Source: Candidatus Woesearchaeota archaeon (lineage in GTDB: Archaea > Nanobdellota > Nanobdellia > SCGC-AAA011-G17 > GW2011-AR18). Taken from it: 64,000 bases of DNA. Both the position numbers and the translations under genes were made by a program. Below are positions 12,399 to 62,916 of the stretch, piece by piece. The notes under the pieces are model-generated. The model searched no databases. It was not told the DNA's origin and saw nothing but the letters and a program-made list of their open reading frames with translations. Numbering within the stretch: position 1 is the first letter of the stretch; each line of letters starts with the position of its first letter. The stretch covers positions 434 through 64,433 of the forward strand of contig JAGVZW010000033.1 in NCBI GenBank assembly GCA_018302235.1, given 5' to 3'.

Positions 12399-12400
12399 TT

Positions 12401-19857: not shown

Positions 19858-19876
19858 TTTTTTTCTATTATAGGTG

Positions 19877-19980: not shown

Positions 19981-19986
19981 ACCAAT

Positions 19987-20074
19987 CGCCCTGACCGGGA
20001 CTTCCAGTATCCTTTTGAACCCGGGTTGAAGCCTCGACAGGGCTTCGTGCTAGACCGGTCTACACCATCAGGGC
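19987..20074 (-). tRNA. tRNA-Asp (anticodon GUC) with a ~13-nt insertion inside the T-loop.
   Basis: Manual fold: GCCCTGA/TCAGGGC acceptor stem, GTGT/GCAC D-stem, AAGCC/GGCTT anticodon stem with loop CTGTCGA, T-stem CCGGG/CCCGG enclosing a 20-nt loop TTCAAAAGGATACTGGAAGT. Confidence 0.6.
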
Positions 20075-33838: not shown

Positions 33839-33873
33839 TTTAAACCTCCAAATTACTCATATGAATTAAATTT

Positions 33874-34485: not shown

Positions 34486-37400
34486 TTATAATTTAAAACG
34501 TTTTCTTTTTAACACAAAATAAATTCCAACAATTAGTAAAATCCCAAGAATTGCTATTATTATAGGCCATAACAAAGATGTTTCTTCTTCAATCTGTTCT
34601 TCTTGAACCTCTTCTTGTGCTTCCTTTTCCTCTGTTATTGTAGGTATCTCACTAATAATTTGTTCTTTAATCGTTTGTATCCTCAATAATGCTGTATTAT
34701 TTTGTATATTATCCAAACCAACACTAAGATCATAAAAATTATCTGCATTTAAATTAAATTTTTTAGTTTCTCCTATATAAATTACTGCCTCAATAGGCTC
34801 ACTTTGTACAAGAATCTTAACATTATCATCATTAATCTCTTTTACAGTTACAGTATGTGTAGCACCCTCAAAAATAAATTCAACAATATCCCCATCATTA
34901 AAATATTGTAGAATTCCTTGTTCTAATTTCTCATTTGTTACTGTAGTTTTTGTAGTTCCGGTTGGAGTACTACTCCCACCCCCACTTGAACTTGAAGTGG
35001 TAGATAAAGATTCTCTATATGATGAAAATTCACAATATGGTATCTTCCAAACACAATTAATTGAATCCAATAGAGTTGCTTCTGCAGTTTTATCCACACA
35101 ATTTGCACCAGCATCATCACAATGATACAATGTATCACAAACCCCTGTAAATGGTATTTTTAATTTACAGACCTCTGGATGTAAATTACCTATTATTTTA
35201 TCCCTTGTAGCAGAAGTTAATCCCAAAATATTACTATCACTTATTATATCTGCTCCCCCATCAATTGATCTGACCTTATCATTTAAAGCAGTCATTGTTA
35301 AACTAGCATTAATAAATTCAAAATATACACTACTATCATTCTTTGCCATCTTTATATTAACCAACCTTCCATCTGTATAATTTGTTTTCATCCCTGAATT
35401 AGTTCCACATACTTGACCCTGTATATGCTCATATACCCCATTCTGATCTAAATCATACGAAATTACCCAAGCAGAAGTTGTTTTTATTCTTGCCACAAAA
35501 TTACAATATGGACATGTTGCATTAGTAACTGTTATTATCGAACTACATTGACTTACAGCACAATGTGAATCAGTATCACAAACCTTTATCTTATAATAAT
35601 ATCCTGTTTGATTAGAGAGACTAAAATTCAAAGCATTAGTTCCATTATATAAATTTGCAGTATGCCACAACTTATAATCCCTAACATCACTACTTACTAA
35701 ACCTATATCTCTTACTGTTGAATTCACAGTCAAACATCTTGAATAATTAGAATAAAATTCAACTGTACCATTAGTTGGTTTATTTGTATCATACATTATT
35801 AATGCTGAATCTGGATATTCCTCTAATTTTACCCCTAAGACTTGTGGTGATCTAGCATCTGTATATCCTGGAGAATTAACCCCTAAATTTGTGCATGCTG
35901 ATGAAAATTCACAATCCCAATCATAACAATCTAGTGTATTATCACCATCATCATCTACACCATTAAAGCAATCCTCATACTTTACATAACCATTCTTCAA
36001 GATATCCTCAAATTTCGCTACATTAGCTCCATAAGAAAACATACTATCTATCTCAAAATCAATAGTACCTGGTGTAAACCATATTGGTCCAATAGAATCA
36101 CTAACTACTGAAATATTTTCATATAAACCTGCTGTTGAAACATAAATCCTTATTTCTTCAGATGAATTATACAATGTAGGAAATCTAGCTAATTCTGATT
36201 TTTCTACAGCAACCATAGGCCCGCTTATCTCTGAGCACATCTTAGTCTTCCATGTAGTTAGTTTAATATCAGTAGCAGCCCAAGCATTATCATCACATTT
36301 ATACGCTGTTGTAGATTCTATTGATTTGCTATTATTCACATCCCATGTTGAAGTATATTTAAATCTAAATTCATATCCTGTTTTTGTTGTGTCATTTGTA
36401 AGTGCACATCCCCCTGTTGCCAAACCATCTGTATCTAAATATACATAAAGCTTTATAGTATCATTCCCATTACCAACTTTATCAGCACCATAAATATACG
36501 CTGGAAGTTTTTCTTTATTACATATTGAAGAATTAGAGAAATCCCTAACCTTTACACCATATCCAAAGGCATTTACCATATCCTTCACTCCAATATTGCA
36601 TATATCTATACTTCCTGCAATAGTAGTCTCATTACAATCATCATACCCTAATGGCATCATTATACCGCTTTCCATTCCAGTAAATATTTCATTCATAAAT
36701 CCAGGATTACACCATCCAGTCATCCATTTGCACCCAAACCCACAACCAGCCTGTGCAGTTTGATTATAACATGTGGGTTCACAAGTTCCCCATGCAGTAA
36801 CATTACAATAAAGATTATTATTACACTCTGTTTCCCAATCTGTTGGATTAGCCCATTTTTGTAATGTACTATTCATCCAACATTGATCCATAATATTAGT
36901 ACACCAACCATATCCTGATTCATTATTCCACCAACAATTATTTGTTGCATTGCATCCCCCCCCTGCAGGTGATAAATACATCCAACAACTACTATTAGTC
37001 CAGTCTACATCACAAAAAGGCATAGGTTCTGGGAACCATCCACATGTAAGATTAATATGTGTTTTATTTGTGCATAAACTTTGATTACCATCATATTTAT
37101 AACAATTAGAACCTGCAGCAGTAGCTACTCCACCTGCACCCATAGTCGATGCACTTGAAAATCCCCCATATTTAGGATCACACCACCCAGATTCCTTCCA
37201 TGTACATCCAGATGTAGCCTGACAACCCCCTTGATTGTACATATTTGAGGCTGAAGAACATGTTTCTAGATCCTCTTCCTGACACCATCCATTTTGATCC
37301 TTCCATTGACAACCACCTTGTGCATTACAAACAGATGATGAACTCTGATTACCTAACAAAAAACACCTTGGTTCACAAAAAGTATATGTCCAATCAGAAC

Positions 37401-40347
37401 GCCAAAAACATAAGGAATTTCCATTAGCATCAAATTGATTCGCACATGCAGCAGTAGTACTAGCACTCCAACATTTCTCAGTTGGATTTGCACACCATCC
37501 ACCCCATGTATCATTCCTCCACCAACAATCTGCATCAACACAAGTAGAATTAGAATAATATTGCCAGCAATTAGCACTATAATTTACCTCACAATGTGGA
37601 GTACTATACGAATCTACATACCAATTACATCCATCTGTATTATTACAGTTTGTTGATGTTGTATACATCCAGCAATTCTTTGGTTTAAAATTATTATGAT
37701 CACACCATCCACCAGCACCAGTACACCATGTTGTAGTATTACCCGTACCTAAACACCAAGAATCCGCAGTCCAATTACAACCATTTCCAGAAGCTGCATC
37801 ACAATTAGCCTTACTTAAACCCATACATAACTGAGTTTGACTCCAATCCTCTTCACACCAAGAATAACCAGTACCATTCTGCCATAAACATTGTGTACGT
37901 GAATTACAATAAGTTTCATTCGTATCATACTTCCAACACTGCGAACCTGGAGAATCACACCAAGTCCCCCACTTATCAACAACCCACTCACAACTATTAG
38001 TTTCACACGTTGCTTGCGTTACCCATCCAGAACATTCACCCCCAATAAAACCGCAATAACTATCTGAATAACAAGCACTGTCCATACAATCTATCAATTG
38101 ATTATTATTATTATCTGACCCATCCCAACAAATCTCTCCACTCTCTCCTACATTTGAAGAACAATATCCATCACTTGATGTTCCCTCCCACTTACAAGCC
38201 CCACTAGTATTTGAAACATCAGCTCTACCTAAACCCTGACAATCTGACTGTGTATAACACCTATCACAAGCATCTAAACATGTTTTATCCCCTTTTTTTA
38301 AACAATAACCACCTATAGTCATAGAAGTGTCTACCACCCATTTACAACCACCAGCACCAGAGTTTGCATTACTATTCTCACAATAACTTCCTGGTCTCTT
38401 TGTTGTATCATTACTAAGCGGATCTCCCATATATGTACATGCCCCACAATCAACATTACAATCCACTACAACATTATTTTTATATTGATATTTAGTTTTA
38501 CAATAGCCAATATTATTAGATGCTCTTGTATCAGCCTCAAACTCACAAATCCCTAAAAGAGAATTTCTGCACGCAGAATCAGCATTAGTCGCATTTACAG
38601 TATTCCCATCGCTATCTTCATATTCACAACCATAACAAGCCTTATCACAACTTACATCACCTCCAAACTTACTCTCACATCTTCCAGTAGGAACAGAAAT
38701 ATTACCCTCACAATAACTCTCAGTAATCCAATTTCCTCCAGTAAATTCACAAGTTCTCTTGTTAGTCAACTTATTCAGGCTTTGAGATGTATTCCCAAAG
38801 ATATCTGCTGCATCTACCAAGCATCTCTCTGTTGTATTATCCCATTTACAAGGCATATACCATGGATCACCACTAATCTGTTCACATAAAGATTTATCAG
38901 TATAAGAACTATAATCCTCACAAAAATTTGCACCCGCTGGTGGTGCTGACATCTGATCCCAACATGTTGTAATCAATTTGTTTGCAGTACAATTATTATA
39001 TTGCCAAGAGCAACACGATGATAACACAGATATACTATTACATAAATTTGAATCATTTATATAACTACACTTTATTCCATTACCTGTAATATTAATTCCA
39101 TAATTGTTGGTTAATGTATTGCATTTTTCACTAGAATAATTACAACCCAATGTCAAATTACAATTTGTTTGATTCATATCAAAAACATAACATCCAGGAT
39201 TCCATTCCTCAAATATTGTAGTAGAACTATTTGTTAATGTCCAATTTGGCGTCTGACAGCTACCACCTACACCTAGGTTATTTAGATCAGTATACACCCA
39301 CCAACAATAAGATGTTGCAGAACAATCATATTGTGTTGTTTTATTCGCACAACCTGTTGTCGTATAATCTTTATAACACCACCCTGGATTAGTAGCATTT
39401 GTAGCATTAGAATAATCATTCCATTGACAATTCATACTATAGGTATTGTTCTCACATGCACTTGCATTTCCCCCCTTTGCACCATCCCAACTCCAACATT
39501 GAGCCTCTTCGCAATAAGATGTTGATTGAGAAGATTTCCAATAACAATTAGTCATATTAGTACATGTATTATTAGCAGTAAAAGTCCAACAATCCTGCGT
39601 TGTACAATAATTACTACTCCATTTACAACTTAAATTATAGGTATTATTCACACACGCTGTCTGATTAGTCCAATCATAAACATAACATGCTGGTTCCTGA
39701 CACCAATTATTTCTCCATGCACAATTGATTTCATCTGTCACAGACGCACATGCTGTCTGATTAGTATAACTTGAACACCATCTCTCTTGACAAAGATTAG
39801 CACTCCATGTACAATTTTTACCATTCCATGATTTGCCTGCATTACACGTTGATTGAGTAGTATAATCAATACCACAATTTCTATAATCACACTTTCCCCA
39901 ACTACAACTTGTTGTATTTAAACATGAAGCTCTTGTCGTCTGTGCTGAACAATCTGCAGACCATAAAAGGTTATTATTATAACAACTCTCACTCCATTTA
40001 CATCCTAGATTCCTTGAATTATTTTCACATGTATTCTGATTTGTTCCATATAAATCATAACATGATGCCGTACCACAATAATTAGTGGTCTTGGAACCCA
40101 CCCAAGTACAATTTTTTCCAGTAATTACAGTATTTGTACATTCATTTTGTGAGCCTAGATTCCAACAAGCCAATTCTGTACAGTATTTTCCCCCAGAATA
40201 CTGCTTCCAAATACAAGCATTAGCAGCAGTACAACTTGCATTATTAGTCTCAGTATACAACCAACAATTTGCACCATATATTGACTTAATAAAAACAAAA
40301 ACTAAAAAAAATATTAAAAGATAAATGTATATATTATTTTTCTTCAT
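34486..40347 (-). CDS. Giant (1953 aa) secreted, C-terminally membrane-anchored, Cys/Trp-rich repeat surface protein.
   Basis: Signal peptide MKKNNIYIYLLIFFLVFVFIKSIYG. Dozens of ~30-aa modules of the form C-[WY]-x(4-6)-N-x-[ST]-x-C-x(4-8)-C-x-W-x(4-8)-C. Very dense N-x-S/T sequons. A Ser/Thr-rich linker (SSSGGGSSTPTGTTKTT), an acidic stretch, a C-terminal TM helix and a KRKRFKL tail. Confidence 0.8.
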   Translation of the reverse strand: MKKNNIYIYLLIFFLVFVFIKSIYGANCWLYTETNNASCTAANACIWKQYSGGKYCTELACWNLGSQNECTNTVITGKNCTWVGSKTTNYCGTASCYDLYGTNQNTCENNSRNLGCKWSESCYNNNLLWSADCSAQTTRASCLNTTSCSWGKCDYRNCGIDYTTQSTCNAGKSWNGKNCTWSANLCQERWCSSYTNQTACASVTDEINCAWRNNWCQEPACYVYDWTNQTACVNNTYNLSCKWSSNYCTTQDCWTFTANNTCTNMTNCYWKSSQSTSYCEEAQCWSWDGAKGGNASACENNTYSMNCQWNDYSNATNATNPGWCYKDYTTTGCANKTTQYDCSATSYCWWVYTDLNNLGVGGSCQTPNWTLTNSSTTIFEEWNPGCYVFDMNQTNCNLTLGCNYSSEKCNTLTNNYGINITGNGIKCSYINDSNLCNSISVLSSCCSWQYNNCTANKLITTCWDQMSAPPAGANFCEDYSSYTDKSLCEQISGDPWYMPCKWDNTTERCLVDAADIFGNTSQSLNKLTNKRTCEFTGGNWITESYCEGNISVPTGRCESKFGGDVSCDKACYGCEYEDSDGNTVNATNADSACRNSLLGICEFEADTRASNNIGYCKTKYQYKNNVVVDCNVDCGACTYMGDPLSNDTTKRPGSYCENSNANSGAGGCKWVVDTSMTIGGYCLKKGDKTCLDACDRCYTQSDCQGLGRADVSNTSGACKWEGTSSDGYCSSNVGESGEICWDGSDNNNNQLIDCMDSACYSDSYCGFIGGECSGWVTQATCETNSCEWVVDKWGTWCDSPGSQCWKYDTNETYCNSRTQCLWQNGTGYSWCEEDWSQTQLCMGLSKANCDAASGNGCNWTADSWCLGTGNTTTWCTGAGGWCDHNNFKPKNCWMYTTSTNCNNTDGCNWYVDSYSTPHCEVNYSANCWQYYSNSTCVDADCWWRNDTWGGWCANPTEKCWSASTTAACANQFDANGNSLCFWRSDWTYTFCEPRCFLLGNQSSSSVCNAQGGCQWKDQNGWCQEEDLETCSSASNMYNQGGCQATSGCTWKESGWCDPKYGGFSSASTMGAGGVATAAGSNCYKYDGNQSLCTNKTHINLTCGWFPEPMPFCDVDWTNSSCWMYLSPAGGGCNATNNCWWNNESGYGWCTNIMDQCWMNSTLQKWANPTDWETECNNNLYCNVTAWGTCEPTCYNQTAQAGCGFGCKWMTGWCNPGFMNEIFTGMESGIMMPLGYDDCNETTIAGSIDICNIGVKDMVNAFGYGVKVRDFSNSSICNKEKLPAYIYGADKVGNGNDTIKLYVYLDTDGLATGGCALTNDTTKTGYEFRFKYTSTWDVNNSKSIESTTAYKCDDNAWAATDIKLTTWKTKMCSEISGPMVAVEKSELARFPTLYNSSEEIRIYVSTAGLYENISVVSDSIGPIWFTPGTIDFEIDSMFSYGANVAKFEDILKNGYVKYEDCFNGVDDDGDNTLDCYDWDCEFSSACTNLGVNSPGYTDARSPQVLGVKLEEYPDSALIMYDTNKPTNGTVEFYSNYSRCLTVNSTVRDIGLVSSDVRDYKLWHTANLYNGTNALNFSLSNQTGYYYKIKVCDTDSHCAVSQCSSIITVTNATCPYCNFVARIKTTSAWVISYDLDQNGVYEHIQGQVCGTNSGMKTNYTDGRLVNIKMAKNDSSVYFEFINASLTMTALNDKVRSIDGGADIISDSNILGLTSATRDKIIGNLHPEVCKLKIPFTGVCDTLYHCDDAGANCVDKTAEATLLDSINCVWKIPYCEFSSYRESLSTTSSSSGGGSSTPTGTTKTTVTNEKLEQGILQYFNDGDIVEFIFEGATHTVTVKEINDDNVKILVQSEPIEAVIYIGETKKFNLNADNFYDLSVGLDNIQNNTALLRIQTIKEQIISEIPTITEEKEAQEEVQEEQIEEETSLLWPIIIAILGILLIVGIYFVLKRKRFKL

Positions 40348-41340: not shown

Positions 41341-41452
41341 GCCTCACTAGCTCAGCCTGGTTAGAGCGCCACTCTCATATGTTTGAGAAATGAAGCATTA
41401 GCTAATGAACTAAGAAAGGTGGAGGTCGGGGGTTCAAATCCCCCATGAGGCA
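41341..41452 (+). tRNA. tRNA-Met (anticodon CAU) with a 37-nt intron at the canonical 37/38 position.
   Basis: Manual fold: acceptor GCCTCAC..ATGAGGC, D-arm GCTC/GAGC, anticodon stem CCACT/GGTGG with CTCATA followed by the intron (41380..41416), T-arm GGGGG TTCAAAT CCCCC. Confidence 0.7.
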
Positions 41453-47971: not shown

Positions 47972-48762
47972 CTATTGTTTCTTTGTAAATATAATAATTG
48001 CAATTATACCTAATATTATAATAAATACAAAGATTATTGTTGTTAATGAAAACCCCCAAATAACAGTATGAGATGATACCCCTGCTATTGAATTCGAATT
48101 TGCTATTGGTTTATCAGAAAATGTACTTGTTGAAACAACCTCTCCTGCTTCAAGATTATTAAAATTATATTTTATAACGGGATCATTTTCAATTATTTCA
48201 GTATTATCTGGCAAAACTAATTCTGATGCATCTGCTACATCTTCTTTTGGAATCTCAATTATTATATCTAAATCACCATCTTCAGGCATGACATATGTTT
48301 CTTTTAATTCATAAAATTCTTTACTTTCTCCATTTTTATTAATACCTACATGTGTAATTAACTCTTTTTTTTCTGCATTAACTGGTCTTTCTTTTTCTAA
48401 ATTAAAAATTGCTGTTTCTAAACCTTTATTTGGTTTTTCTTGAAGTTTTTTAGTTAAAATAATTAAAGCTCTATCCCTTCCTTTGTCCTCTAATTTTTCT
48501 TCTTTTAATACAAAAGTTTCTGCATCTTCATCAATAAATTTTTTAGCAGCTTTTTTTTCATCTTTATCATCCTTGTCTTCTACTTCATCTTTATCATCCT
48601 TGTCTTCTACTTCATCTTTATCATCCTTGTCTTCTACTTCATCTTTATCATCCTTTTGTCTTCCTTGTCATCTTCAGATTCATTTGAACCAGCAAAGACT
48701 AAAGAAAAAAAACTAATTAAAAAAAATACTATAATAACACTAGAGATTATTTTTTTATACAT
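47972..48762 (-). pseudogene. Acidic-repeat, C-terminally anchored secreted protein gene disrupted by frameshifts.
   Basis: ATG at 48762 encodes a signal peptide MYKKIISSVIIVFFLISFFL and then stops. A second frame encodes SLVFAGSNESEDDKEDK. A third frame (48667..47972) carries four DDKDEVEDK repeats, then ...MPEDGD... and a C-terminal TM helix. The shifts lie at a T7 run and inside the 27-nt repeat array. Confidence 0.4.
48558..48675. repeat. 27-nt tandem repeat, about 4 copies, with the last copy degenerate.
   Basis: Unit tcatctttatcatccttgtcttctact. On the coding strand this encodes DDKDEVEDK. Confidence 0.8.
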
Positions 48763-51488: not shown

Positions 51489-52607
51489 ATGGAAAAGAAA
51501 TATTCCTCCCATCACGATACTAAAAAATATGCATGGGATTTTGCAAGAGAAAGATTTGGAAGTAAAGATGATGAAATTACTAAAGTAGAAACGTTAAGTT
51601 TATCTAGAAAAGATGAGAGTAAAAAAGATTCTGGTATTTTGAATGTTAAAACTAAAGATCAATTAAGTCAAGTGCATGAGAGTAATATTAAAGAAGAACC
51701 TCATATTTTAAAACCTTGGTATAAATTAATAGAACGGCTTACATATAGAAAAAAGAATAACGAGCTTACAAAAATTGATGAAAATTCTTTTAAAAGAATT
51801 GTAAAGATTGGATCAGTATTTATTGAAATCAATGACCGTACTGCTTATAACAGAGCTTTATATGAAAGAGGAAATAATTTTGGACTAGAAGAGCGTTTTT
51901 TGAAAAAACATTTTAAAGGTATTAGTTTTGCTGCTGCAACTACTGCTTTAACTATAGGAGTATTTACATTATATAATAGATTTAAATCTTCAATTGACGA
52001 TCATTTTCAAGTAAAAACCCCTATTAGCTATCAAATTAAAGAGCTTGAAGATGATTTAGAGGGAATCGTTGAAGATTATAAACCCAGAGAAATTGAAGTT
52101 GTTGAAACTAAACCAATTAAAGTTGTTGAAACTAAACCAATTAAAGTTGTTGAAACTAAACCAATTAAAGTTGTTGAAACTAAACCAATTAAAGTTGTTG
52201 AAACTAAACCCAGAGAAGAGATTAGAAAAAATGGGATGTATAGTGTTGATTTTTCAAGAACAAGTTTTAGAAATGGAAGAATAATAAGCACTACTGAATC
52301 TAATAAAATAATGCGGTTTTCAGAATATCATGGAACTCCTTATAAAGGGGAGGGCGATGAATTAAAATTGCGGATAAATAAAGATGGAACATCTTATCAA
52401 ATAAGATCTGAAACGAAAAAAGCTAGGAACTATTTTGTTATATGTTATGATACAAATGGTAATTTTATTGGGACTAAAAATGGAAATATTTCTAATGAGG
52501 ATGTAGTTCAAATACCTAAGGAAACAAGATATACTGATACTATGCTATTAAATGAAAAAGGAATAAGTATTGCATCACATATCAGTTACCAAAATATTGT
52601 TTTATAA
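51489..52607 (+). CDS. Hypothetical protein with a single TM segment and a VETKPIKV tandem-repeat region.
   Basis: 372 aa with a TM helix at GISFAAATTALTIGVFTLY. Four to five in-frame VVETKPIK repeats are encoded by a 24-nt tandem array. Confidence 0.45.
   Translation: MEKKYSSHHDTKKYAWDFARERFGSKDDEITKVETLSLSRKDESKKDSGILNVKTKDQLSQVHESNIKEEPHILKPWYKLIERLTYRKKNNELTKIDENSFKRIVKIGSVFIEINDRTAYNRALYERGNNFGLEERFLKKHFKGISFAAATTALTIGVFTLYNRFKSSIDDHFQVKTPISYQIKELEDDLEGIVEDYKPREIEVVETKPIKVVETKPIKVVETKPIKVVETKPIKVVETKPREEIRKNGMYSVDFSRTSFRNGRIISTTESNKIMRFSEYHGTPYKGEGDELKLRINKDGTSYQIRSETKKARNYFVICYDTNGNFIGTKNGNISNEDVVQIPKETRYTDTMLLNEKGISIASHISYQNIVL
52098..52211. repeat. 24-nt perfect tandem repeat (4.75 copies) flanked by aaacccagagaa.
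   Basis: Unit gttgttgaaactaaaccaattaaa, in frame within the 51489..52607 CDS. Confidence 0.85.
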
Positions 52608-52794: not shown

Positions 52795-53346
52795 ATGAAA
52801 AGATTAATACTGTTATTTATATTAATGTTAATGATAGCAAGTTGTAGTATTCAAAAAAATGATGGTTTTATAAAAATAAAAAATGTACTCTTAGAGGAAA
52901 AAAATAATACAACTAATATTATTGAAGAAAAAGAAACTAAACCAAAAGTAGTTACAACTGAAGATCTAAACAGTGAAGATGAAGAAGAGGATAATAATGA
53001 TGAAGATGATAACGAAGAAGAAGAAACTAAATTAACAACAGATAAAAACGAAATTACTGTAAAAACACCAGATGGAGATTTAAAAATTGTTATGAACAAT
53101 GCAAATGAATGGTGTATAGGAGGGTCAATCTGGGATTATACAGTACCCAGTTCAAAAGGAACAAGCTATGTAAAGGGAAAAGTAACTGGCATAATCACTG
53201 ATAACAATGAATTAAATGGTCTATGTGAGATATTCTATAGTATAAAGAATCCAGATGGAACTACATCAGAAATATACAATTATTTTAATAAAAGCAATGA
53301 TATCCTATATGCTAAAGATTTGAATGGAACACTTTATAAAAAATGA
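52795..53346 (+). CDS. Secreted lipoprotein-like protein with an acidic (D/E-rich) region, hypothetical.
   Basis: MKRLILLFILMLMIASCS is a lipobox-like signal. It has a poly-acidic stretch EDEEEDNNDEDDNEEEE and two Cys in the C-terminal domain. Confidence 0.4.
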   Translation: MKRLILLFILMLMIASCSIQKNDGFIKIKNVLLEEKNNTTNIIEEKETKPKVVTTEDLNSEDEEEDNNDEDDNEEEETKLTTDKNEITVKTPDGDLKIVMNNANEWCIGGSIWDYTVPSSKGTSYVKGKVTGIITDNNELNGLCEIFYSIKNPDGTTSEIYNYFNKSNDILYAKDLNGTLYKK

Positions 53347-53720
53347 TTAACCTTATTTTTTTCTTTTAAATTAGCAAAGGTTGCTCCCACATCAATTATA
53401 TATTTGCCTTCATCTAACATATAGACTATAGGCTCCTTTTTAAATAATTTAGCTATATCCAATTCAAATTTACCTGATTTTGTAATATTGATTGAAGCCA
53501 AATCTAACACTATAAGCTTATCATCTGAATTAATCCCTAATATATCCAATACATCTTTTTCTATATTCTCCTTTTCTTCTAAAGAAAGATTATGAATATT
53601 CTTTTCAGTTTTAGACTTGATAAAAAAAAAGAATTTTCCACCACAACCATTACATCCCTTAAGTATTTCATCTGAACCATCTTCAAATATTCTGTCGCAT
53701 TTTACACATTGATGTGGCAT
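53334..53720 (-). CDS. Zinc-ribbon protein conserved in archaea, hypothetical.
   Basis: N-terminal CVKC..x13..CNGCG Cys4 ribbon. Last gene of the GTPase operon. May correspond to the DUF2072-type Zn-ribbon family, recalled from memory and uncertain. Confidence 0.4.
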   Translation of the reverse strand: MPHQCVKCDRIFEDGSDEILKGCNGCGGKFFFFIKSKTEKNIHNLSLEEKENIEKDVLDILGINSDDKLIVLDLASINITKSGKFELDIAKLFKKEPIVYMLDEGKYIIDVGATFANLKEKNKVNHFL

Positions 53721-53722
53721 AT

Positions 53723-54118
53723 TTAATACTTCCTTTTTCTTCTATCTAATGTTAGAAGTTCAATTTTAAATGGATCTTTTTTTATTTCTTTAACTATTGT
53801 AGCTGGTCCAACAATAGTTAAACCATTTGATCTACCCAATAAAAAATTAGCAATTTTTAATCTGATCCTCTCAAATAATTCCTGATTTTGTTTAATGTTA
53901 TCAATACTGCATATCTCGATCCCCTTAAATTTTTTATCTATTTCCTCCATTGTTTTAGTTATTAATTCTGCCTCTTCATTAGGATCTAATTTTCCCTCTA
54001 TTAAAATTATCTTATCCTCTTTTACACTCCTTAAAATCTTTTTTAATTTTTCTTCTGTATTCAAATTTCCAAGTTCATGATATGGGATATATTGTAACGT
54101 TAACAATTTTTTGTTCAC
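53723..54118 (-). CDS. Conserved archaeal hypothetical protein, possibly DUF2073-like.
   Basis: 131 aa, overlaps the upstream GTPase stop by 4 nt and lies 3 nt upstream of the Zn-ribbon gene. Confidence 0.35.
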   Translation of the reverse strand: MNKKLLTLQYIPYHELGNLNTEEKLKKILRSVKEDKIILIEGKLDPNEEAELITKTMEEIDKKFKGIEICSIDNIKQNQELFERIRLKIANFLLGRSNGLTIVGPATIVKEIKKDPFKIELLTLDRRKRKY

Positions 54119-56136
54119 CTCTTTTTCACCATTTCAAATACCTTATCATAAAATTCCTCCATGTTTAAGCCCTTTTCAGCTGATATGCCTATAACAGAAT
54201 ATTGAGGAAATGCATCTTCTATTTTTTTTACATCAGATTTCTTTAAATCTGTTTTATTAGCTACAATTAAAACTGGAATATCCCTTGCAGCTAAATTACC
54301 TATAATTGTTATATTTACTTGATTATATGGATTTCTAGTTGAATCTAATACAATTAAAACACAATCCATATCATCCAACCATTTTATTGCATCTATAATC
54401 CCCTTTGTAGCCTCTTTCGCCCTTTCTTTTGCTTCATCTATCTTCATTTTAAATTTAAGAAAATCCTCATAATCAATCTTTGTAGCGATTCCTGGTGTAT
54501 CAACTAGATTAAAACTTAATTCCTTTCCCTTTGAATTAATAGTGATTTTTTCCTTCATATTTATTTCCCTTGTTTCATGTGGAATAGAAGATACTGTTCC
54601 CATATCTTCCCCTAACCAATCCTGACATATTCTATTTGCAATGCTAGTATTATGAGCGATCAGGCCATTAGAAATAATAAAGGTATGTGTATCTTCAATT
54701 GTTAAATCATAAATATAATCATTATATTCTTCTTGAGTTATTTCTTTAATTTCATCCCACAAGTTATCTGAATTAGTTAAAGTCTTTATAATTTTATTAT
54801 TTAATACTCTAGACATTTTCTCTAATCTATGATATGATATTCTATTATCTCTGTACATTCTAGCAATATGTTTATTATCTAAATAAAATTCTTCTTCTTT
54901 TAATTTCTCTTGTTTTCTTATATTTTCCAATAAACCCATAATAGGCAAATAAAACTTATTTCTTTTTAAACAACATTTGGATAGTTTATCTAATCTTTCA
55001 GCTTTATATTTTATTCTAAAACCAATTTTTTCTTTAAACAATCTGTGATTATCACTTCCAAATATAAATAAACTCCAGTAGGCTTGACCATTAATTAATT
55101 TTGATCTAAATCTCCCTACAATCCCAAATCTATTTAAAAGTAATTGAACTTGTTCTACCAAAATTTTACTTTTGGTACTATATTCAATCTGATTGCTAGA
55201 ATTTTTAGTTAATTTAGAAACATAACCCCCCATATCAAATAAAATTTGTAATAATTTTGCTGTTAAATTATCAGGTAAACCCATAAATTGTGAAGGAATT
55301 TGTTTATTACCTGAAAGAGATGGTTTGAAATTTAAACTTTTTTCTAAAAAATCAGTTAATGTTCTTGAATTTAATTCTCTTTCAGGCACACCATTATTTA
55401 TTCTTTTAATGGCTTCTAAATTGAATAATTTTTTTGTTAAATAATCAAAATGATTTAATGCGTATTCGTCTGAATTACTAAATTTAATCACGCTTTTTGT
55501 ATAATATGCTTCTGTAATTAGATAACCTATAAAACTAACTAAATCTTCATCTATGTAAGAAGGTATAATTATCTCTTTTTGATTATGAAATTTAGATATT
55601 ATTTGTATCATATTGCCATTAACGTTGAAACAATTTTCAGTAATTAATTTGGGTAACATAATGTTTGTTGCTAAGGATAACTTTTTTGCAATAGCAATAG
55701 ATTCATTAGCCTTTAAACCTCCAGTTCTTATATTCTCTACGCCATTATTTGAAAGCCTGATTAATGGATGTTCTGGTGTAACTCTTATTTGTCTACCCGC
55801 TTTAGTTAAAATATTATATATTTTTCCTTTATATTTTTGAGCATAAACAAAACTCACTCGTTTTGGAATTATTTTTAAGGTTTGTGTATTAAAACTTGGT
55901 ATGATTAAATTTTTAGATCTTACATCAATATATATTTCATTAAATGAATTATTATGGTTTACGCTATCAAATATTTCTTTTATTGTTTTAATTTCTCCAT
56001 TCATTAATACAATTTTAGTTTCTGGTGTAACACATTTTCCGCTGTTCGGTGGCCCATAAAGTCCTAATTTTATATTCTTCTTTTTATTAAAAATTGACCT
56101 TAAATTAAAAAAGAAAACCTTAAGCTTACGAATCAT
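54115..56136 (-). CDS. Small Ras/Era-like GTPase interrupted by an intein in the P-loop. The mature extein is about 211 aa.
   Basis: Extein motifs are GLYGPPNSGK|...|TSI (G1, split), DTPG (G3), NKTD (G4) and SAEK (G5). The intervening 462 aa begin with Cys and end with HN, followed by Thr. Confidence 0.65.
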   Translation of the reverse strand: MIRKLKVFFFNLRSIFNKKKNIKLGLYGPPNSGKCVTPETKIVLMNGEIKTIKEIFDSVNHNNSFNEIYIDVRSKNLIIPSFNTQTLKIIPKRVSFVYAQKYKGKIYNILTKAGRQIRVTPEHPLIRLSNNGVENIRTGGLKANESIAIAKKLSLATNIMLPKLITENCFNVNGNMIQIISKFHNQKEIIIPSYIDEDLVSFIGYLITEAYYTKSVIKFSNSDEYALNHFDYLTKKLFNLEAIKRINNGVPERELNSRTLTDFLEKSLNFKPSLSGNKQIPSQFMGLPDNLTAKLLQILFDMGGYVSKLTKNSSNQIEYSTKSKILVEQVQLLLNRFGIVGRFRSKLINGQAYWSLFIFGSDNHRLFKEKIGFRIKYKAERLDKLSKCCLKRNKFYLPIMGLLENIRKQEKLKEEEFYLDNKHIARMYRDNRISYHRLEKMSRVLNNKIIKTLTNSDNLWDEIKEITQEEYNDYIYDLTIEDTHTFIISNGLIAHNTSIANRICQDWLGEDMGTVSSIPHETREINMKEKITINSKGKELSFNLVDTPGIATKIDYEDFLKFKMKIDEAKERAKEATKGIIDAIKWLDDMDCVLIVLDSTRNPYNQVNITIIGNLAARDIPVLIVANKTDLKKSDVKKIEDAFPQYSVIGISAEKGLNMEEFYDKVFEMVKKR
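54649..56034 (-). other. Intein (about 462 aa) with a LAGLIDADG-type homing endonuclease domain, inserted after the P-loop Lys.
   Basis: Block A is CVTPETKIVLMNGE directly after GPPNSGK. The C-terminal block is THTFIISNGLIAHN, with Thr as the +1 residue. Internal LAGLIDADG-like motifs are LVSFIGYLITEAYY and LLQILFDMGGYVS. Confidence 0.6.
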
Positions 56137-57377: not shown

Positions 57378-57433
57378 TCACTTTTCTAAGCAAAATAGAA
57401 TATATAAATCTTTCTGCAGTCCAAAAAATAATT

Positions 57434-58117
57434 CTATAAAATCAACCAATCAAAATTTTCTTGACCATTATCTAAAGAATATAATATACCATCATCAACA
57501 TAATTTATATATAAATCAAAATTAGTTTCCTCTATTTTGTCATAAATACAAGTAATACAGTTTCTATTGCCATTTAAAGCATAATCTTCAACAATGAAAT
57601 CAGCTATATCAAACATTTTACTGATATTTGAGTTAAGAACAACATTAAAATACCTTAAATTATATGTTTTATCAGCCTTTGTAATATCTAATTTATAATC
57701 TAAAAGAACATTTACATTTTGATTAATCTCACTATTTACTTCAAATCCATTCTCTTGAATATTATACTCTGATAAATAATAAAAATCTTTAATACAATAA
57801 TTTAATCTATAATTAATATAATTGTTTAATTCTCTATTCAAAAAATTCTCTTCTATTAAGCTAACATTATTTTTATAATAATATGGTATCTCCTCTATAA
57901 AATAACCACCGTGATCACCCAAATAAACTAATCCCTCTTTAACTGTCTGTTCCAAACAATTTTTTACATATTCATCAACTGCTTGTATATCTTGAGGAAC
58001 AATATTAACATACTTACTCTCTAAAATATAAAATTTAACATAATAAACAATACCTAAAATAATTAAAATTACTAATCCTAGAATTACAAATATAGTTACT
58101 TGTCCCCTTTTTAACAT
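57434..58117 (-). CDS. Hypothetical N-terminally anchored protein.
   Basis: 227 aa with one N-terminal TM helix. Asn/Tyr-rich. Confidence 0.3.
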   Translation of the reverse strand: MLKRGQVTIFVILGLVILIILGIVYYVKFYILESKYVNIVPQDIQAVDEYVKNCLEQTVKEGLVYLGDHGGYFIEEIPYYYKNNVSLIEENFLNRELNNYINYRLNYCIKDFYYLSEYNIQENGFEVNSEINQNVNVLLDYKLDITKADKTYNLRYFNVVLNSNISKMFDIADFIVEDYALNGNRNCITCIYDKIEETNFDLYINYVDDGILYSLDNGQENFDWLIL

Positions 58118-58281
58118 GATATAAAAAATATGTAAGAATTAATAAATTTAATTCTCATATAAAAAAACATATTTTTATTCAATAAACAATTCTGAATAAT
58201 TACTAATTCTGAGAAAATAAAACATACTTAATTACTATTAAATGACAAAAGTTTTAAATAGTTTTTTATTAGATTAAGAGA

Positions 58282-58881
58282 ATGGAAAAACGCACTGACT
58301 ATTTTGAAACAAAAAATAGGGAGTTTTATTATGAATTTAAACAAACAGAAGATAAGAAAAAACGCGAAGAATGGGTATTATTTAACAAACATCTTGTTTA
58401 TTCTATAGCAAAAAAATTTACTAATTTTAGTATATATGATGATATTATTCAAGAGGGGTATATTGGCTTAATCCATGCTGTAGATAGATATAACCCGAAT
58501 TTAGGGAATTTTAGCAGTTTCGCATACTCTGCTATAATGAGAGAAATAATTAGATATATAAGAAAAAATAGATCAATAGTACATCCCCCTATAAATAATC
58601 AGCTAAGTGTATCAAAAGACGTAGCTATTGATGATATTATAGACCTAGAAGCAGAAACAAATCCAGAAACAGTACTACAAAAAAAAGAATTGGTTGAAGA
58701 TGTTCAAAAAACATTAAAATTAACAAGTTTAAGTGATATCTTAATTAGAATAATGTATGATGAAAATACATCAATAATAGCCAGAGCATATAAAGTATCT
58801 AGAAGAGAAATGCACCAATTAGAAACTAGGGCAGTTAAAACATTTAAAAAAAGATTCGAAACACCTGAAGCCTATATTTAA
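58282..58881 (+). CDS. Sigma-70-family-like protein (regions 2 and 4) encoded in an archaeal context.
   Basis: DIIQEGYIGLIHAVDRYNPNLGNFSSFAYSAIMREIIRYIRKNRSIVHPP aligns with sigma-70 regions 2.1 to 2.4 (DLIQEGNIGLMKAVDKF..G.KFSTYA.WWIRQAI.R.I...RTIRIP). IARAYKVSRREMHQLETRAVKTFKK resembles the region 4.2 HTH (VTRERIRQIEAKALRKLR). Confidence 0.55.
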   Translation: MEKRTDYFETKNREFYYEFKQTEDKKKREEWVLFNKHLVYSIAKKFTNFSIYDDIIQEGYIGLIHAVDRYNPNLGNFSSFAYSAIMREIIRYIRKNRSIVHPPINNQLSVSKDVAIDDIIDLEAETNPETVLQKKELVEDVQKTLKLTSLSDILIRIMYDENTSIIARAYKVSRREMHQLETRAVKTFKKRFETPEAYI

Positions 58882-58906
58882 TTTTTATTCTTCAAACCAC
58901 ACCTTA

Positions 58907-61060
58907 TTAACACTGCTCAAATACCTTTTGTTTATCTTCTTCCGTAATAAATTTATATTTTACTAAAAAATCAAATGAAGCAATATAAACACCTGTATAC
59001 GGACTATATTCACATATATGTTGCTTAAATTCCATTGGCCTATTTCTAATTTTAGTTGTCATATCAGAAATATCCTCATCCCAATCAGTAGCCCCATAAG
59101 GAGTAGCATAACCATAAGCAACCTCAAAAAGTGATTCATCACTCCACCCTAAACCATCAGACAATTTTTTATTAGGATAAGCATCATTTCCCTTATGAAT
59201 ATCATACCATTCTTGTTTAAAAAGGTTTTTTTCTCCTTTTTTATATCTACTAGAATATTTTTCAATCAATGGATGTGATAGTTCATGAACTAAAAATTCA
59301 TCATCTGAAAATTTATCACTTGTTACTTCTACGACATTATTTCCTATGCACCCAACAGTAGATTCATCTGATTGATGACATGCCTTTAAAAGATCATTTT
59401 TATTATTGTAAAGAACAATTTCCTTTAAACCAACCCTCATTTCAGGAGTAGAAGAATCTAATACATCCCCTAAATAAGATAATTGATCTTTACTGTAATC
59501 TCCATTTAATTTTATATTATATTTTTTTTCTAATAATCTTTTAGAAGATTTATCAACAAAAAATTTAGGTTTAGAGATTAGATCTTCAACTAGGTTAAAA
59601 CTACCATCCTCTTCAAAATTAACAAACCCAATTCCTATATCAAACTCAAAAGGAACAGCTTTAATATTTGATTTATCATTAACGAACCGTATATCTCGAT
59701 TTGTATACGTATCAAAAATATTTGGACCGTTCTGCATTCTAAATAGTTTTGTTTTTCCACCCAATTTTGAATATAATCTAACCACTGGGTTAGGATCATA
59801 ATCTTCCATCTTTAAAGAGTAACTTTCTTTATCATCAAAATCAAATTTAACATCACCTTTAAAGAAAGAATCCTTTGTAAAATCAAGATTAAAATCACCT
59901 TTGTCCTTCGCAATATTTGTATAAACCCCCACTTCTCCAAGAGAAATATAACTAGTATCTACCCCATGTTTATTACCATCAAAAAATAATTTTGTTTCTT
60001 GTTCACTGTATACATGAATACCATTAATTACACTATCTTTTGTATAAAAAGTATTACCTTTAATCAGAATTTCACCCTTATTTAATGTATTAAACTGGTT
60101 AATCTTGACATTTTCTCCAGTAATCTTCATATCAGGTCCATTTTCAGACATAGGCAATTCTTTAAATTCAGAATCCTTTGGAGCATTTAAAGTTATTATT
60201 CCATCCTTAAATTTAACATTAGAACCTGGCGGAGCATAAAATTTAGTTCCTTTTATATTATAATCACCACCTTGATCACCAATCTTAAAATCAGCCTCAA
60301 CTAAATCACCCTTAGCATCTAAAGTAAATGTACTTTTACCGTTTTCTGTAGGAATAATATTCTTAAATTCATTATCTCCTATCTTTAAGTCCCCTTCTTT
60401 TTCTATATTAATAACATTTAAATCATTTAAAGAGCTTGAACTAACTCCATTTGGATCACCAGAAAAAGAAAGATAATCATTAGTCTCATATCCTAAAGAT
60501 TCTCCAAAATTAAGCCCAGCAGCAGAAATTAAAAAGGAAAATAAAATAAAAAATATAAACACATTTTTTCTTAAATTCCTTAAAATAAGAATTAAAATTA
60601 TTATTAAACTAAAAATTAAAATATACAATAAATATTTCTTTTCTTCAGAAACTGGTTCTTCAATTATTTTTTCTTCTTCCTTAAAATAATCCACTAAATT
60701 AATCTCTAAAATCATATCTAAAGAGTCATTATAAACAAAAATATCCAGAATATTTTTATCATATTTAACACTTAAAATACCACTATAATAATCCCTCAAA
60801 AAAGTCTCGTCAGTTCCATTTTCATAATAAAACCTAATTTCTCTATCAAATTCAAAAGAATCCATTTCAACAATATTATTACTTAAATCAAATACTTGAT
60901 AGACATAATTTCCTTCATTATCTATTACATCATAATAATTCAACCCTATAATCTCGTAATCATAAACACCATTATCATAACTAATATTTATATCTAAATA
61001 TTCTCCAGCGTTAACACATATAATACTAATTATAAAAATAAATATTACCTCTTTAAACAT
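58907..61060 (-). CDS. Large secreted/membrane protein with a C-terminal HExxH zincin-like region.
   Basis: Signal peptide MFKEVIFIFIISIICVNAG. A mid-protein hydrophobic stretch. The C-terminal part has FLVHELSHPLIEKYS (HExxH) and downstream E/D residues. Confidence 0.4.
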   Translation of the reverse strand: MFKEVIFIFIISIICVNAGEYLDINISYDNGVYDYEIIGLNYYDVIDNEGNYVYQVFDLSNNIVEMDSFEFDREIRFYYENGTDETFLRDYYSGILSVKYDKNILDIFVYNDSLDMILEINLVDYFKEEEKIIEEPVSEEKKYLLYILIFSLIIILILILRNLRKNVFIFFILFSFLISAAGLNFGESLGYETNDYLSFSGDPNGVSSSSLNDLNVINIEKEGDLKIGDNEFKNIIPTENGKSTFTLDAKGDLVEADFKIGDQGGDYNIKGTKFYAPPGSNVKFKDGIITLNAPKDSEFKELPMSENGPDMKITGENVKINQFNTLNKGEILIKGNTFYTKDSVINGIHVYSEQETKLFFDGNKHGVDTSYISLGEVGVYTNIAKDKGDFNLDFTKDSFFKGDVKFDFDDKESYSLKMEDYDPNPVVRLYSKLGGKTKLFRMQNGPNIFDTYTNRDIRFVNDKSNIKAVPFEFDIGIGFVNFEEDGSFNLVEDLISKPKFFVDKSSKRLLEKKYNIKLNGDYSKDQLSYLGDVLDSSTPEMRVGLKEIVLYNNKNDLLKACHQSDESTVGCIGNNVVEVTSDKFSDDEFLVHELSHPLIEKYSSRYKKGEKNLFKQEWYDIHKGNDAYPNKKLSDGLGWSDESLFEVAYGYATPYGATDWDEDISDMTTKIRNRPMEFKQHICEYSPYTGVYIASFDFLVKYKFITEEDKQKVFEQC

Positions 61061-61477
61061 AGTTTTAAAAATAAAAACTATAATATAAATTTAATCTTAT
61101 TTTAGAGCGTATTTAACCGAAAAATAACATTAATATGTTTTTTTCTAGACTTAAGAACAAAGTTAGAAGAAATAAAAATACTTGAAATTTTAAATGAATG
61201 GAAAAAAAAAATAATATTAAGTTTATTCCATTATGGAAATGGTTATTGTTAAATGAATAAATTTTATTTACAAGAATCAACTAAAAGCATTATTTCAATA
61301 AGATATTTTTCCATATAAAAAAAATATTAGGAAATTACACATCGTCAAATAAAAGAAAATATATATTAACAATAATAGAGATATTATATCACAAAATAAT
61401 TACAATACTAAGATAATAGATAGCTTACTGAAATCAAAGAATTATATTTAGGTCCAGTCAAAAATAATTCTATAAAA

Positions 61478-62221
61478 TTAAATAATATTCTTAATTTCTT
61501 TAAATATAACAGCAAAATTAGGAACTATAGAAACATAATCCTTCAATTCATTTGACCATAAATTTTCCATATCTTTAATCTTTAATAAAAAAGACTTAGA
61601 ATCATATTTTTGATTATAATATTTTAATTTTTTATTAATCAGACTAATATCAAATTTAACACCTTTTCTTAATAAAAAATAAAAATCAAATATGTCTCTT
61701 GGTTTGCTTCTATTCATTATTGTTCTTACCTTTTCAGCCATAATTTCTCTCTCATCCATTACTAAAATATTATATGGTCTCAAATCAGAATAAACAGGAA
61801 ATATTTCAATTAATTTAGGATCTAACAAAATACTCTCTCGTAAACTGATGTCTAATCGAAGAGTACATAAACTAACTAAACTATTTACATATAAAGGCCC
61901 TTTTATCTTAAAAATAAAATTTTTTCCCAAATTTTTAACTTCTTCAAATTTAGTCTCATATCCAAAATCAGTTAAAGAATTAGCTATCTTAGAAATTAAA
62001 CTAATATCAAAATCTTTTGTTTGTGTAAAATCCAAATCTATACTAAACCTATTCAAACCATAAATCTTCTGCATAGCAGTTCCACCCTTAAAAATTAATT
62101 CATTAGAAAAATATTGTGACAAAAAGATTAAAAATAAATGTTGTAAATAATCCTTTTCGACTTGTGCTAAATTAAATCCTATAACTGAACAATATTTATT
62201 TAATTCATTTTTAGTTATCAT
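61478..62221 (-). CDS. AbiEii/DUF1814-family nucleotidyltransferase (type IV toxin-antitoxin / abortive-infection toxin).
   Basis: IFKGGTAMQKIYGLNRFSIDLDF matches the conserved DUF1814 N-terminal block (GGTAL...RFSxDxDF). Confidence 0.65.
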   Translation of the reverse strand: MITKNELNKYCSVIGFNLAQVEKDYLQHLFLIFLSQYFSNELIFKGGTAMQKIYGLNRFSIDLDFTQTKDFDISLISKIANSLTDFGYETKFEEVKNLGKNFIFKIKGPLYVNSLVSLCTLRLDISLRESILLDPKLIEIFPVYSDLRPYNILVMDEREIMAEKVRTIMNRSKPRDIFDFYFLLRKGVKFDISLINKKLKYYNQKYDSKSFLLKIKDMENLWSNELKDYVSIVPNFAVIFKEIKNII

Positions 62222-62916
62222 TCCAATACCTCATTAATATTTAATCTCCATCTAACTGAGTTATTTTTGCTTTTTTTCAAATAAGGATTCAAAAGATCAT
62301 ATCTATTGTTAATTTTTACCTTTTTTGATATATCAATACTAATCAAATCCAATAAAAACCCCAATCTTTTTAACAAAACAATAGAATTCATCAGTAAAGC
62401 ATATTTTAATAATTTTTCAATATCAATTTTATTTTTTAAAACCTCAAAAGTCTCAGAAATTGGACAAAATTTAGGTAGATATAAAGAATCAATTATAGCT
62501 TTTTCTAACTCTGCAACAAATAAATAATTCTTTTTATAAATCATCTTTCTATAGCCAAAAACATTTTTTAAAACAACAAAATTAATAGTCATCTTATTAA
62601 AAATTAAAGATTTTTTTGGTTTAGAAGAAACAATATAAATAGTCTTAGGAATTTGTGTAGTCAAACCATAAATAGAGTAGGCACTAATAAAAGAGATATA
62701 TGACGGAAAAATCAAATTAGAAGCAACCTCATAAGGTTCATCAGATAGAGTATATTTATTTTTTTCTATCTCCGTAATAATATTCCTTTTTTTTAGTCTA
62801 TATATATACAAACGACTATACTCTTTATTTTTATTAATAATCTTAGAGATATCATTTAATGTTAGAACTGAAGTTTTCATAGTTTCAATTTTTTTTAAAA
62901 AATCAAGTGCTTGCAT
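62218..62916 (-). CDS. AbiEi-like antitoxin/transcriptional regulator partner of AbiEii.
   Basis: 232 aa. Its stop overlaps the AbiEii start by 4 nt. The N-terminal region is wHTH-like. Confidence 0.45.
   Translation of the reverse strand: MQALDFLKKIETMKTSVLTLNDISKIINKNKEYSRLYIYRLKKRNIITEIEKNKYTLSDEPYEVASNLIFPSYISFISAYSIYGLTTQIPKTIYIVSSKPKKSLIFNKMTINFVVLKNVFGYRKMIYKKNYLFVAELEKAIIDSLYLPKFCPISETFEVLKNKIDIEKLLKYALLMNSIVLLKRLGFLLDLISIDISKKVKINNRYDLLNPYLKKSKNNSVRWRLNINEVLE

Follow-up and report, generated by a model that had tools for sequence, protein, structure and literature searches.

The 64,000-nucleotide stretch of DNA analysed here, hereafter the window, comes from contig JAGVZW010000033.1 of a Candidatus Woesearchaeota archaeon assembly (GCA_018302235.1) and carries, at 58282-58881 on the forward strand, a gene for a 199-aa protein of the sigma-70 family. 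We conclude that the gene is genuine and intact, descends from a bacterial or phage sigma-70 and resides in the chromosome of a woesearchaeal member of the DPANN archaea. The gene is monocistronic, lies as the sole forward-strand gene between two reverse-strand genes, and starts at the first ATG, three codons past an in-frame stop. The open reading frame (ORF) has exactly the extent given in an earlier reading of the bare sequence (the original prediction), and the peptides quoted there were found in its translation. The features of the locus are collected in Table 1.

The surroundings are archaeal. Genes for L21e, the RNA polymerase (RNAP) subunit RpoF, a DUF655 protein, an intein-containing GTPase and OapB are located directly upstream, with L21e and RpoF about 900 bp away. 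RpoH, B'', B', A', A'', a NusA-like KH protein, S12 and S7 are encoded at 10961-19929 and TFE at 9296-9892; fibrillarin and L15e are also encoded in the window. The archaeal context claimed originally (an RNAP with split B, A'/A'', H and F, plus TFE) was therefore recovered gene by gene. Archaeal transcription initiation depends on TBP, TFB and TFE, and the RNAP genes of the window are archaeal only, with no bacterial-type RNAP gene in the 64 kb or its extensions.

Membership in the sigma-70 family

The translated protein was compared with family profiles and with proteins of known structure. Pfam Sigma70_r2 (PF04542) matched residues 35-97 with E=2e-16 and 60 bits (gathering score 24), while the NCBIfam model TIGR02937 scored 78.5 bits (cut-off 42.9) and aligned residues 27-191 with positions 2-164 of its 165. 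Both scores exceed their cut-offs, bearing out the claim of a sigma-70 region 2 by the profile check that the original prediction had proposed. PHROG 351, 'RNA polymerase sigma factor', matched with 78 bits over residues 12-191, and a phmmer search of the PDB returned SigA/RpoD at ~1e-11, then RpoS, SigF and RpoH.

Subfamily profiles were matched more weakly, the best being TIGR02980 (SigB/SigF/SigG) with 58.2 bits, followed by SigF, SigB and RpoH. The protein lies below every subfamily cut-off (234 for TIGR02980) and is therefore not a member of the SigB/SigF/SigG subfamily. Nor does it belong with groups 1 and 2: the tryptophan dyad (W-dyad) W433/W434 of E. coli sigma70 is replaced by S83/A84, the sigma3 domain is absent, and the Pfam models r1_1, r1_2 and r3 gave no match on the protein. 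MzaA of the MZA anti-phage system was considered as an identity and rejected, since its generic sigma2 part alone is matched (PADLOC, 26 bits, residues 31-105 aligned with positions 434-510 of the 683 in the model; NCBIfam, 39.8 bits where the cut-off is 800) and no other Mza components are present.

Domain architecture and conserved residues

An AlphaFold2 model of the protein (mean predicted local distance difference test score, pLDDT, 82) was compared by Foldseek with the PDB and with BFVD. Residues are related to E. coli sigma70 through the PDB phmmer alignment, in which query residue 22 corresponds to sigma70 residue 370. The model contains a sigma2 domain preceded by a region 1.2-like helix, a linker, and a C-terminal sigma4 with helices at residues 128-144, 149-158, 163-169 and 174-193. 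The linker, of about 24 aa, contains no domain-sized helices and the protein has no Sigma70_r3 match, leaving no space for a sigma3 domain. The Foldseek matches in the PDB were sigma factors only (B. subtilis SigH, the best, and SigA; E. coli sigma32 and sigmaS), those in BFVD were phage sigmas of the SigK/F/G type, and the alignments cover both domains.

The region 4.2-like helix-turn-helix (HTH) of the original prediction stood in part. The Pfam model Sigma70_r4 gave no match with the full-length protein and stayed below threshold with its C-terminal part; a divergent sigma4 is nonetheless backed by the fold of four helices and by the TIGR02937 alignment, which runs over essentially the whole model. 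Judged from the modelled fold, sigma4 thus appears real though divergent.

The core-binding motif of region 2.2 is intact (DIIQEGYIGLIHAVDRY, versus DLIQEGNIGLMKAVDKF in E. coli sigma70), with sigma70 D403, Q406 and E407 retained as D54, Q57 and E58 (DIIQEGYIGL versus DLIQEGNIGL). Besides the substituted W-dyad, Y430 is replaced by F80. In the recognition helix of the sigma4 HTH, RREMHQLETRAVKTFKK, R584 and Q589 are present as R174 and Q179, and R588 is replaced by H178. To score retention, 134 other family members, a reference set picked by likeness to the query, were aligned and the 57 columns of highest conservation taken; the query keeps 34 of the 57 positions, against a reference mean of 39.3±6.3, which puts it at the 25th percentile. 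Every near-invariant sigma residue is kept (D54, G59, G62, L63, A66, G75, F77, A81, I85 and P103). At the level of sequence, the sigma-defining residues show no sign of decay; as regards the neofunctionalisation raised as a possibility in the original prediction, none of these residues has been lost. In sequence, sigma2 resembles that of groups 1-3 (SigB/F/G-like, lacking the W-dyad), unlike that of extracytoplasmic function (ECF) sigmas.

Promoter, composition and assembly integrity

Upstream of the gene, the TATA box TTTAAATA has its centre 25.5 nt before the ATG and is preceded by an A-rich stretch resembling a TFB-recognition element (BRE). Across the 59 genes of the window, 8 of 14 exact matches to TTTAWATA fall at -24 to -30, and the count of matches with at most one mismatch peaks at 14 in the -28 bin, versus a background of ~1-7 per bin. 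This enrichment indicates that transcripts of the organism are leaderless, and the sigma gene fits the pattern; the promoter of the AbiEi gene nearby is also nearly identical to that of the sigma gene. The arrangement is that of a canonical archaeal BRE/TATA promoter at a spacing that implies a leaderless mRNA. Following the stop codon, the T-rich tract TTTTTATTC would be compatible with archaeal oligo-T termination in this AT-rich genome.

The composition of the gene is that of its host. GC content is 0.277, against a window mean of 0.273±0.038, and GC content at third codon positions is 0.165 versus 0.178; the synonymous-codon log-likelihood is -0.802, compared with -0.787±0.087 for the window. 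Since GC and codon usage are host-like and the promoter is archaeal, the transfer is old and the gene domesticated. Recent transfer is excluded, and amelioration of the gene is complete.

Contigs from many samples encode exactly this protein. Both junctions and the gene order are common to at least eight independent assemblies (L001-L008), at least 99.9% identical to the window and drawn from ENA, the JGI Rifle aquifer data and NCBI GCA_036807805.1, with different samples and assemblers. When DUF655, a neighbour of the sigma gene, was used to trace relatives, the closest at species level all proved to be metagenome-assembled genomes of Woesearchaeota or Nanoarchaeia. The possibility that bacterial DNA was joined to an archaeal contig during assembly or binning is already refuted: the junctions on both sides are identical in all of these assemblies, the GC check proposed originally against a chimeric contig showed no compositional break and codon usage showed none either, L21e and RpoF stand close by, the promoter is archaeal, and nothing was found in favour.

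Relatives and origin

The protein is an orphan, the sole sequence in its 90% cluster. A HMMER scan of 1.84 billion representatives collected 12,719 family members at E<=1e-3, the best other match having 30% identity and E ~1e-14. A word-indexed homologue search with the single protein returned only itself, and a profile search with the family was dominated by bacterial primary sigmas, with no archaeal names. The nearest relatives, ~30-35% identical, are bacterial, phage or mobile-element sigmas, and none of their sampled genomic contexts is archaeal: short relatives lie near a phage-like replication module, in a bacterium with SecA and RpoD adjacent, on an integrase-bearing element in a Firmicute-like genome, and at a Firmicute LepA-HemN-HrcA-GrpE locus. 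A tblastn search of annotated phages and plasmids matched bacterial phages and replicons only, at no more than 35% identity; this holds for all 128 matching phage records, every one of them a bacterial phage.

The distribution among related archaea was surveyed in 72 woesearchaeal or nanoarchaeal loci, each covering 10 kb on either side of DUF655. RpoF is conserved in 63 and L21e in 59 of them, and L21e-RpoF-DUF655 is the only syntenic part. The search for the gene in related archaeal genomes, as originally advised, found a sigma-like ORF in one locus (L035), an RpoD-like gene not orthologous to ours; the 227-aa and 717-aa ORFs flanking the window gene have no homologue in any of the 72. These loci are diverged (at most 70% identity in a conserved protein), too far for the absence of the block there to delimit an island by itself.

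The gene in L035 (8313-9158, reverse strand), a Woesearchaeota-like marine contig mislabelled 'Methanosarcinales', encodes a 282-aa sigma in which r2, r3 and r4 are present and the W-dyad is preserved. The proteins nearest to it, Firmicute RpoD, reach at most 42% identity, and the local GC of ~0.40 is slightly above that of the rest of the contig (0.32-0.38). The L035 sigma shares 27% identity with the window protein over sigma2.

With the family bacterial or phage wherever context was checked, and the gene sporadic among related Woesearchaeota, the suggestion of horizontal acquisition is upheld; acquisition of a bacterial- or phage-type sigma gene is the sole reading supported by the data. 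Because nothing is more than ~35% identical, the donor, bacterium or virus, cannot be named. Sigma genes of Woesearchaeota and other DPANN archaea were probably acquired several times independently.

Neighbouring genes and the 4-kb block

Table 1. Features of the sigma-70-family locus, in window coordinates
Feature	Position	Strand	Evidence or description
Direct repeat, left copy, 27 nt (19 nt exact, AAAAATAATTCTATAAAAT)	57424..57450	.	overlaps 3' end of the 227-aa gene
227-aa ORFan, divergent	57434..58117	-	one N-terminal transmembrane helix after ~6 cytoplasmic residues
Putative promoter: A-rich BRE-like stretch (CAAAAG), then TATA box TTTAAATA (58253-58260)	58246..58260	+	sequence
Sigma-70-family gene	58282..58881	+	199 aa, monocistronic; sole + gene between two - strand genes
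Region 1.2-like helix and sigma2 (aa 1-103)	58282..58590	+	pLDDT 89-98, RpoD alignment
Acidic linker, region 3.2-like, predicted disordered (aa 104-127)	58591..58662	+	pLDDT 46-60
Divergent sigma4, four helices (aa 128-199)	58663..58878	+	AlphaFold2 pLDDT 60-86, TIGR02937 to aa 191
T-rich tract TTTTTATTC right after TAA stop	58882..58890	+	sequence
717-aa ORFan, convergent	58907..61060	-	signal-peptide-like N-terminus, two central transmembrane helices, HELSH (HExxH) near C-terminus
Direct repeat, right copy	61460..61486	.	just downstream of the AbiEii stop
AbiEii (61478-62221) and AbiEi (62218-62916)	61478..62916	-	toxin-antitoxin/abortive-infection pair

The sigma gene is flanked by two ORFans. 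The 227-aa protein has no match in Pfam, PADLOC or PHROGs. The 717-aa gene, which ends 25 nt past the TAA stop of the sigma gene, likewise has none in these three collections and no homologue in IMG/VR. As for the secreted HExxH protein of the original prediction, the motif and the signal-peptide-like N-terminus were seen, and no family match accompanies them; the product is probably a surface protein. Both neighbours were considered as anti-sigma factors and rejected on topology, the 227-aa protein having ~6 residues before its helix and the 717-aa protein no cytoplasmic domain beyond a short loop, so that no adjacent or co-transcribed anti-sigma is present at the locus.

The copies of the direct repeat bracket exactly the 227-aa ORF, the sigma gene and the 717-aa ORF, a block of 4,036 bp. 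The probability of an exact repeat of at least 19 nt is 0.003, 0.013 and 0.12 under Markov models of order 1, 3 and 5, and the pair is possibly an insertion scar, of marginal significance. A common terminator motif was rejected as an explanation, because only two exact copies of AAAAATAATTCTATAAAAT occur in the 64 kb. Together with its two surface-protein ORFans, the sigma gene forms a three-gene block specific to the lineage, possibly bounded by the repeat, beside the conserved L21e-RpoF-DUF655 cluster.

Beyond the block, the AbiE pair named in the original prediction was recognised by both Pfam and PADLOC (AbiEii, 109 bits in Pfam and 237 in PADLOC; AbiEi, 156 bits in PADLOC). We treat it as adjacent context of the sigma gene and claim no functional link. 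Between the 717-aa gene and AbiEii, at 61161/61162, 89 bp absent from the window (L001 12881-12969) are present in seven of the other eight assemblies, an indel polymorphism that falls within the sigma block; the carriers are L001-L005 and L008, by BLAST, and L006, by coordinates, and L007 ends before the site. Past the end of the window, L001 continues after the AbiE pair with a HEPN/minimal nucleotidyltransferase pair and an M48/M56 peptidase (16551-17230). With the AbiE and HEPN/nucleotidyltransferase modules downstream of the block, the region is rich in toxin-antitoxin and defence modules.

This setting raises the question of whether a compact sigma from a phage or other mobile element simply came with the 4-kb block, as passenger of a mobile element or defective provirus, serving that element, now or formerly, rather than the cell, and is possibly inert now. 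The nearest short sigmas on a phage-like contig and an integrase-bearing element, the PHROG 351 score and the phage SigK/F/G-like matches in BFVD, the bracketing repeat, the surrounding AbiE and HEPN/nucleotidyltransferase modules, and the divergent rpoS-like genes described on DPANN viruses and a prophage (PMC12647753) are all in line with such an origin. However, the 10 kb on either side of the sigma gene contain no gene for an integrase, capsid, terminase or replication protein, and neither the sigma gene nor the 717-aa gene is found in IMG/VR, where the sigma protein gave only one distant phage sigma2 match. The phage matches, without exception, come from bacterial phages at 35% identity or less, composition is fully host-like with a host-type promoter, and the repeat is marginal under the order-5 model. 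We consider such a passenger origin rather unlikely.

Host polymerase and proposed function

Since the near-invariant sigma positions, the polar face of region 2.2 and a plausible DNA-reading HTH are all retained, the protein most likely still works as a transcription protein. We favour a role as a gene-specific transcription regulator over the explanation as a passenger, over an effector aimed at a bacterial polymerase and over a relic, while giving it at most an even chance and perhaps somewhat less. Sigma4, and perhaps sigma2 too, would bind DNA. The protein would touch the clamp coiled-coil of the archaeal RNAP, at the site of TFE/Spt5, and would modulate TBP/TFB/TFE-dependent initiation at a small regulon without replacing the basal factors; the regulon could be the co-inserted surface-protein genes.

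The clamp coiled-coil of archaeal RNAP is structurally homologous to the bacterial sigma site. It is conceivable, if quite unlikely, that sigma2 has been retained for docking there, giving hybrid, sigma-assisted promoter selection or open-complex formation. If true, this would be the first functional partnership between a sigma and an archaeal RNAP, and would serve as a natural experiment on the deep relationship proposed between sigma and initiation factors of the TFB/TFE type.

Several observations weigh against a regulatory role of a two-domain sigma on the host polymerase. The clamp coiled-coil of the host A' (aa 225-272) is of the ordinary archaeal/eukaryotic type, and alignment with beta' of E. 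coli MG1655 places I, L and H of A' opposite beta' R275, E295 and A302. According to the E. coli mutational literature, these beta' residues are needed for sigma70 binding. Because A' lacks these docking residues, canonical sigma docking is doubtful and not supported; another way of binding to this coiled-coil is conceivable. The C-terminal 75 aa alone score only 12.9 bits (E=0.081) against the Sigma70_r4 model (PF04545; cut-off 24.1). Sites resembling the sigma70-consensus promoter number 87 in the 50-64 kb region, compared with 106±10 in shuffles, and are not enriched, a scan that is uninformative for a sigma protein whose own specificity may differ. The link between the sigma gene and its two neighbours consists of adjacency and the marginal repeat. 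Finally, all copies of the gene belong to one clonal population, L001-L008 being at least 99.9% identical, and no diverged orthologue was found.

The mismatch on A' could also mean that the protein keeps a bacterial RNAP core as its partner, either in a bacterial host or partner cell or encoded elsewhere in the genome. The residues of region 2.2 that dock on bacterial beta' are intact and the sigma positions are conserved overall, whereas the archaeal A' lacks the matching residues, and it has been suggested that some DPANN archaea may have bacterial hosts (Castelle et al. 2021, PMC8204110). However, the sigma sequence has no signal peptide or secretion signal, and the window and its extensions hold no bacterial-type RNAP gene. 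To our knowledge, no transfer of a protein from a DPANN archaeon to a bacterium has been described. The promoter-melting W-dyad is absent, though likewise in sigmas of the SigF/B/G type. Taken together, we regard a bacterial target as very unlikely.

The clonality of the copies bears on a further explanation, namely that the ORF is a non-functional relic which survived by chance in a small clonal population. In its favour, the copies offer no diverged pair from which to compute the ratio of nonsynonymous to synonymous substitution rates (dN/dS); the protein is an orphan in a single 90% cluster, with nothing more than ~35% identical among the 1.84 billion representatives, and the host polymerase has no evident partner surface. 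Against this, the reading frame stays open over 199 codons although a genome of 25% GC readily gains stop codons; the sigma2 model has a pLDDT of 98; the near-invariant family residues are all kept despite ~70% divergence from any relative; and the promoter is host-type and well placed. DPANN genomes are moreover small and streamlined. A relic therefore seems unlikely, and a gene-specific regulator of the host remains the explanation we prefer.

Comparison with known sigma factors

Sigma-70 genes of the family fam00359 have been reported from DPANN archaea, 'particularly prevalent in Woesearchaeota', in a study that excluded mis-binning, found no anti-sigma and called the mechanism unclear (Castelle et al. 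2021, PMC8204110). The window gene shares with them its place on a bona fide Woesearchaeota contig, the absence of an anti-sigma and the presence of archaeal TBP/TFB/TFE (PMC8204110). By the JGI/ENA sample names, the window organism and theirs derive from one series of Rifle aquifer samples, and taxon, source site and annotation would agree with a place of the gene in fam00359. The window sigma is, however, a singleton and, beyond family level, unrelated to the L035 sigma. In a 2025 study, DPANN viruses and a prophage were described as carrying divergent rpoS-like genes (PMC12647753). These are likewise DPANN-associated and highly divergent members of the sigma family, a likeness by description only; they are reported on viral contigs from acid mine drainage, whereas the window sigma has no viral context.

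Among bacterial groups, the group-3 sigmas (SigB/SigF/SigG, SigH, RpoH) come closest, supplying the best subfamily profile matches and, with B. subtilis SigH, the best structural match. Region 2.2 is conserved alike, and SigF/B/G sigmas also lack the W-dyad. The window protein differs in scoring far below the subfamily cut-offs, in having no sigma3 and in having no anti-sigma or anti-anti-sigma partner genes. Compact phage sigmas (Bacillus phage SigF/G/K-like, PHROG 351) are similar in size (~200 aa) and fold, but identity is at most 35% and the phages are all bacterial, whereas the window gene is chromosomal, in an archaeal cell, and viral hallmark genes are absent from its neighbourhood. With ECF (group 4) sigmas it shares the sigma2-linker-sigma4 layout and the match to TIGR02937, a 'sigma70-ECF' superfamily model. 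Unlike them, its sigma2 has a region 1.2-like N-terminal helix and is closest to groups 1-3, and no ECF structure or ECF-specific model is among the best matches. The locus encodes no cognate membrane anti-sigma, the 227-aa neighbour being devoid of a cytoplasmic domain.

The high novelty that the original prediction attached to the finding did not hold. The presence of sigma-70 genes in Woesearchaeota has been in print since 2021 (PMC8204110), and the NCBI record of the identical protein already bears the name 'sigma-70 family RNA polymerase sigma factor [Candidatus Woesearchaeota archaeon]'. The phenomenon is thus already published and the protein correctly annotated, making the finding a confirmation rather than a discovery. 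Added here are the two-domain architecture with a sigma2 like that of groups 1-3, the old transfer and native, apparently leaderless promoter, the uneroded sigma-defining residues of a singleton unrelated to the L035 sigma, and the host clamp helices without bacterial docking residues. The question posed in 2021 was whether such a sigma contacts the archaeal polymerase, acts as an ordinary DNA-binding regulator or targets a bacterial partner; our literature search found no functional study. The window sigma is a compact, well-folded candidate of 199 aa with the cognate A' clamp sequence in the same window, and suits binding experiments.

Other features of the window

One tRNA-like and one tRNA gene were noted, ARAGORN having reported no tRNA in the window. 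At ~19872-19981 on the reverse strand lies a tRNA-Lys(UUU)-like gene (GGGCCGGTAGCTCAGC...CTTTTAA...) with an apparent insertion of ~33 nt in the T-loop (GTGTTCAAA[ACTAATACTGTGTTTCAGTGTTTGTGTATA]TCACG), before the 3' acceptor strand; Rfam scores its 5' 58 nt only, with 26.9 bits against a threshold of 29. The mechanical GTG start assigned to the rpoH ORF (19929) falls inside this tRNA-like gene, so the true rpoH start is probably further downstream. Further GC-rich structured sequence is located just upstream of this gene, at 20000-20060. The second, at 41341-41452 on the forward strand, is an intron-containing tRNA (Rfam, 48 bits) with anticodon CAU in the Rfam alignment and a 39-nt intron after the anticodon loop.

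The GTPase upstream of the sigma gene (54115-56136, reverse strand; MMR_HSR1/GTP_EFTU) is split by an intein with a LAGLIDADG homing endonuclease. OapC and OapB, origin-associated proteins, are encoded side by side (53334-54118, reverse strand), so a replication origin may be nearby. A 1,953-aa ORF at 34486-40347 (reverse strand), with no Pfam match at E<=1e-3, may encode a giant surface protein typical of DPANN archaea. In-frame tandem repeats occur at 48557-48655 (27-nt unit, 3.7 copies) and, within the ORF 51489-52607, at 52091-52228 (24/72-nt unit, ~5 copies). The copy number of the latter array varies between assemblies of the same population, with products of 372, 364, 348 or 123 aa. Accessory genes of bacterial flavour, at 29275-29898 (forward strand) and 33287-34470 (reverse strand), encode a diadenylate cyclase (DAC) domain protein, LemA and a DsbA/thioredoxin-like protein.

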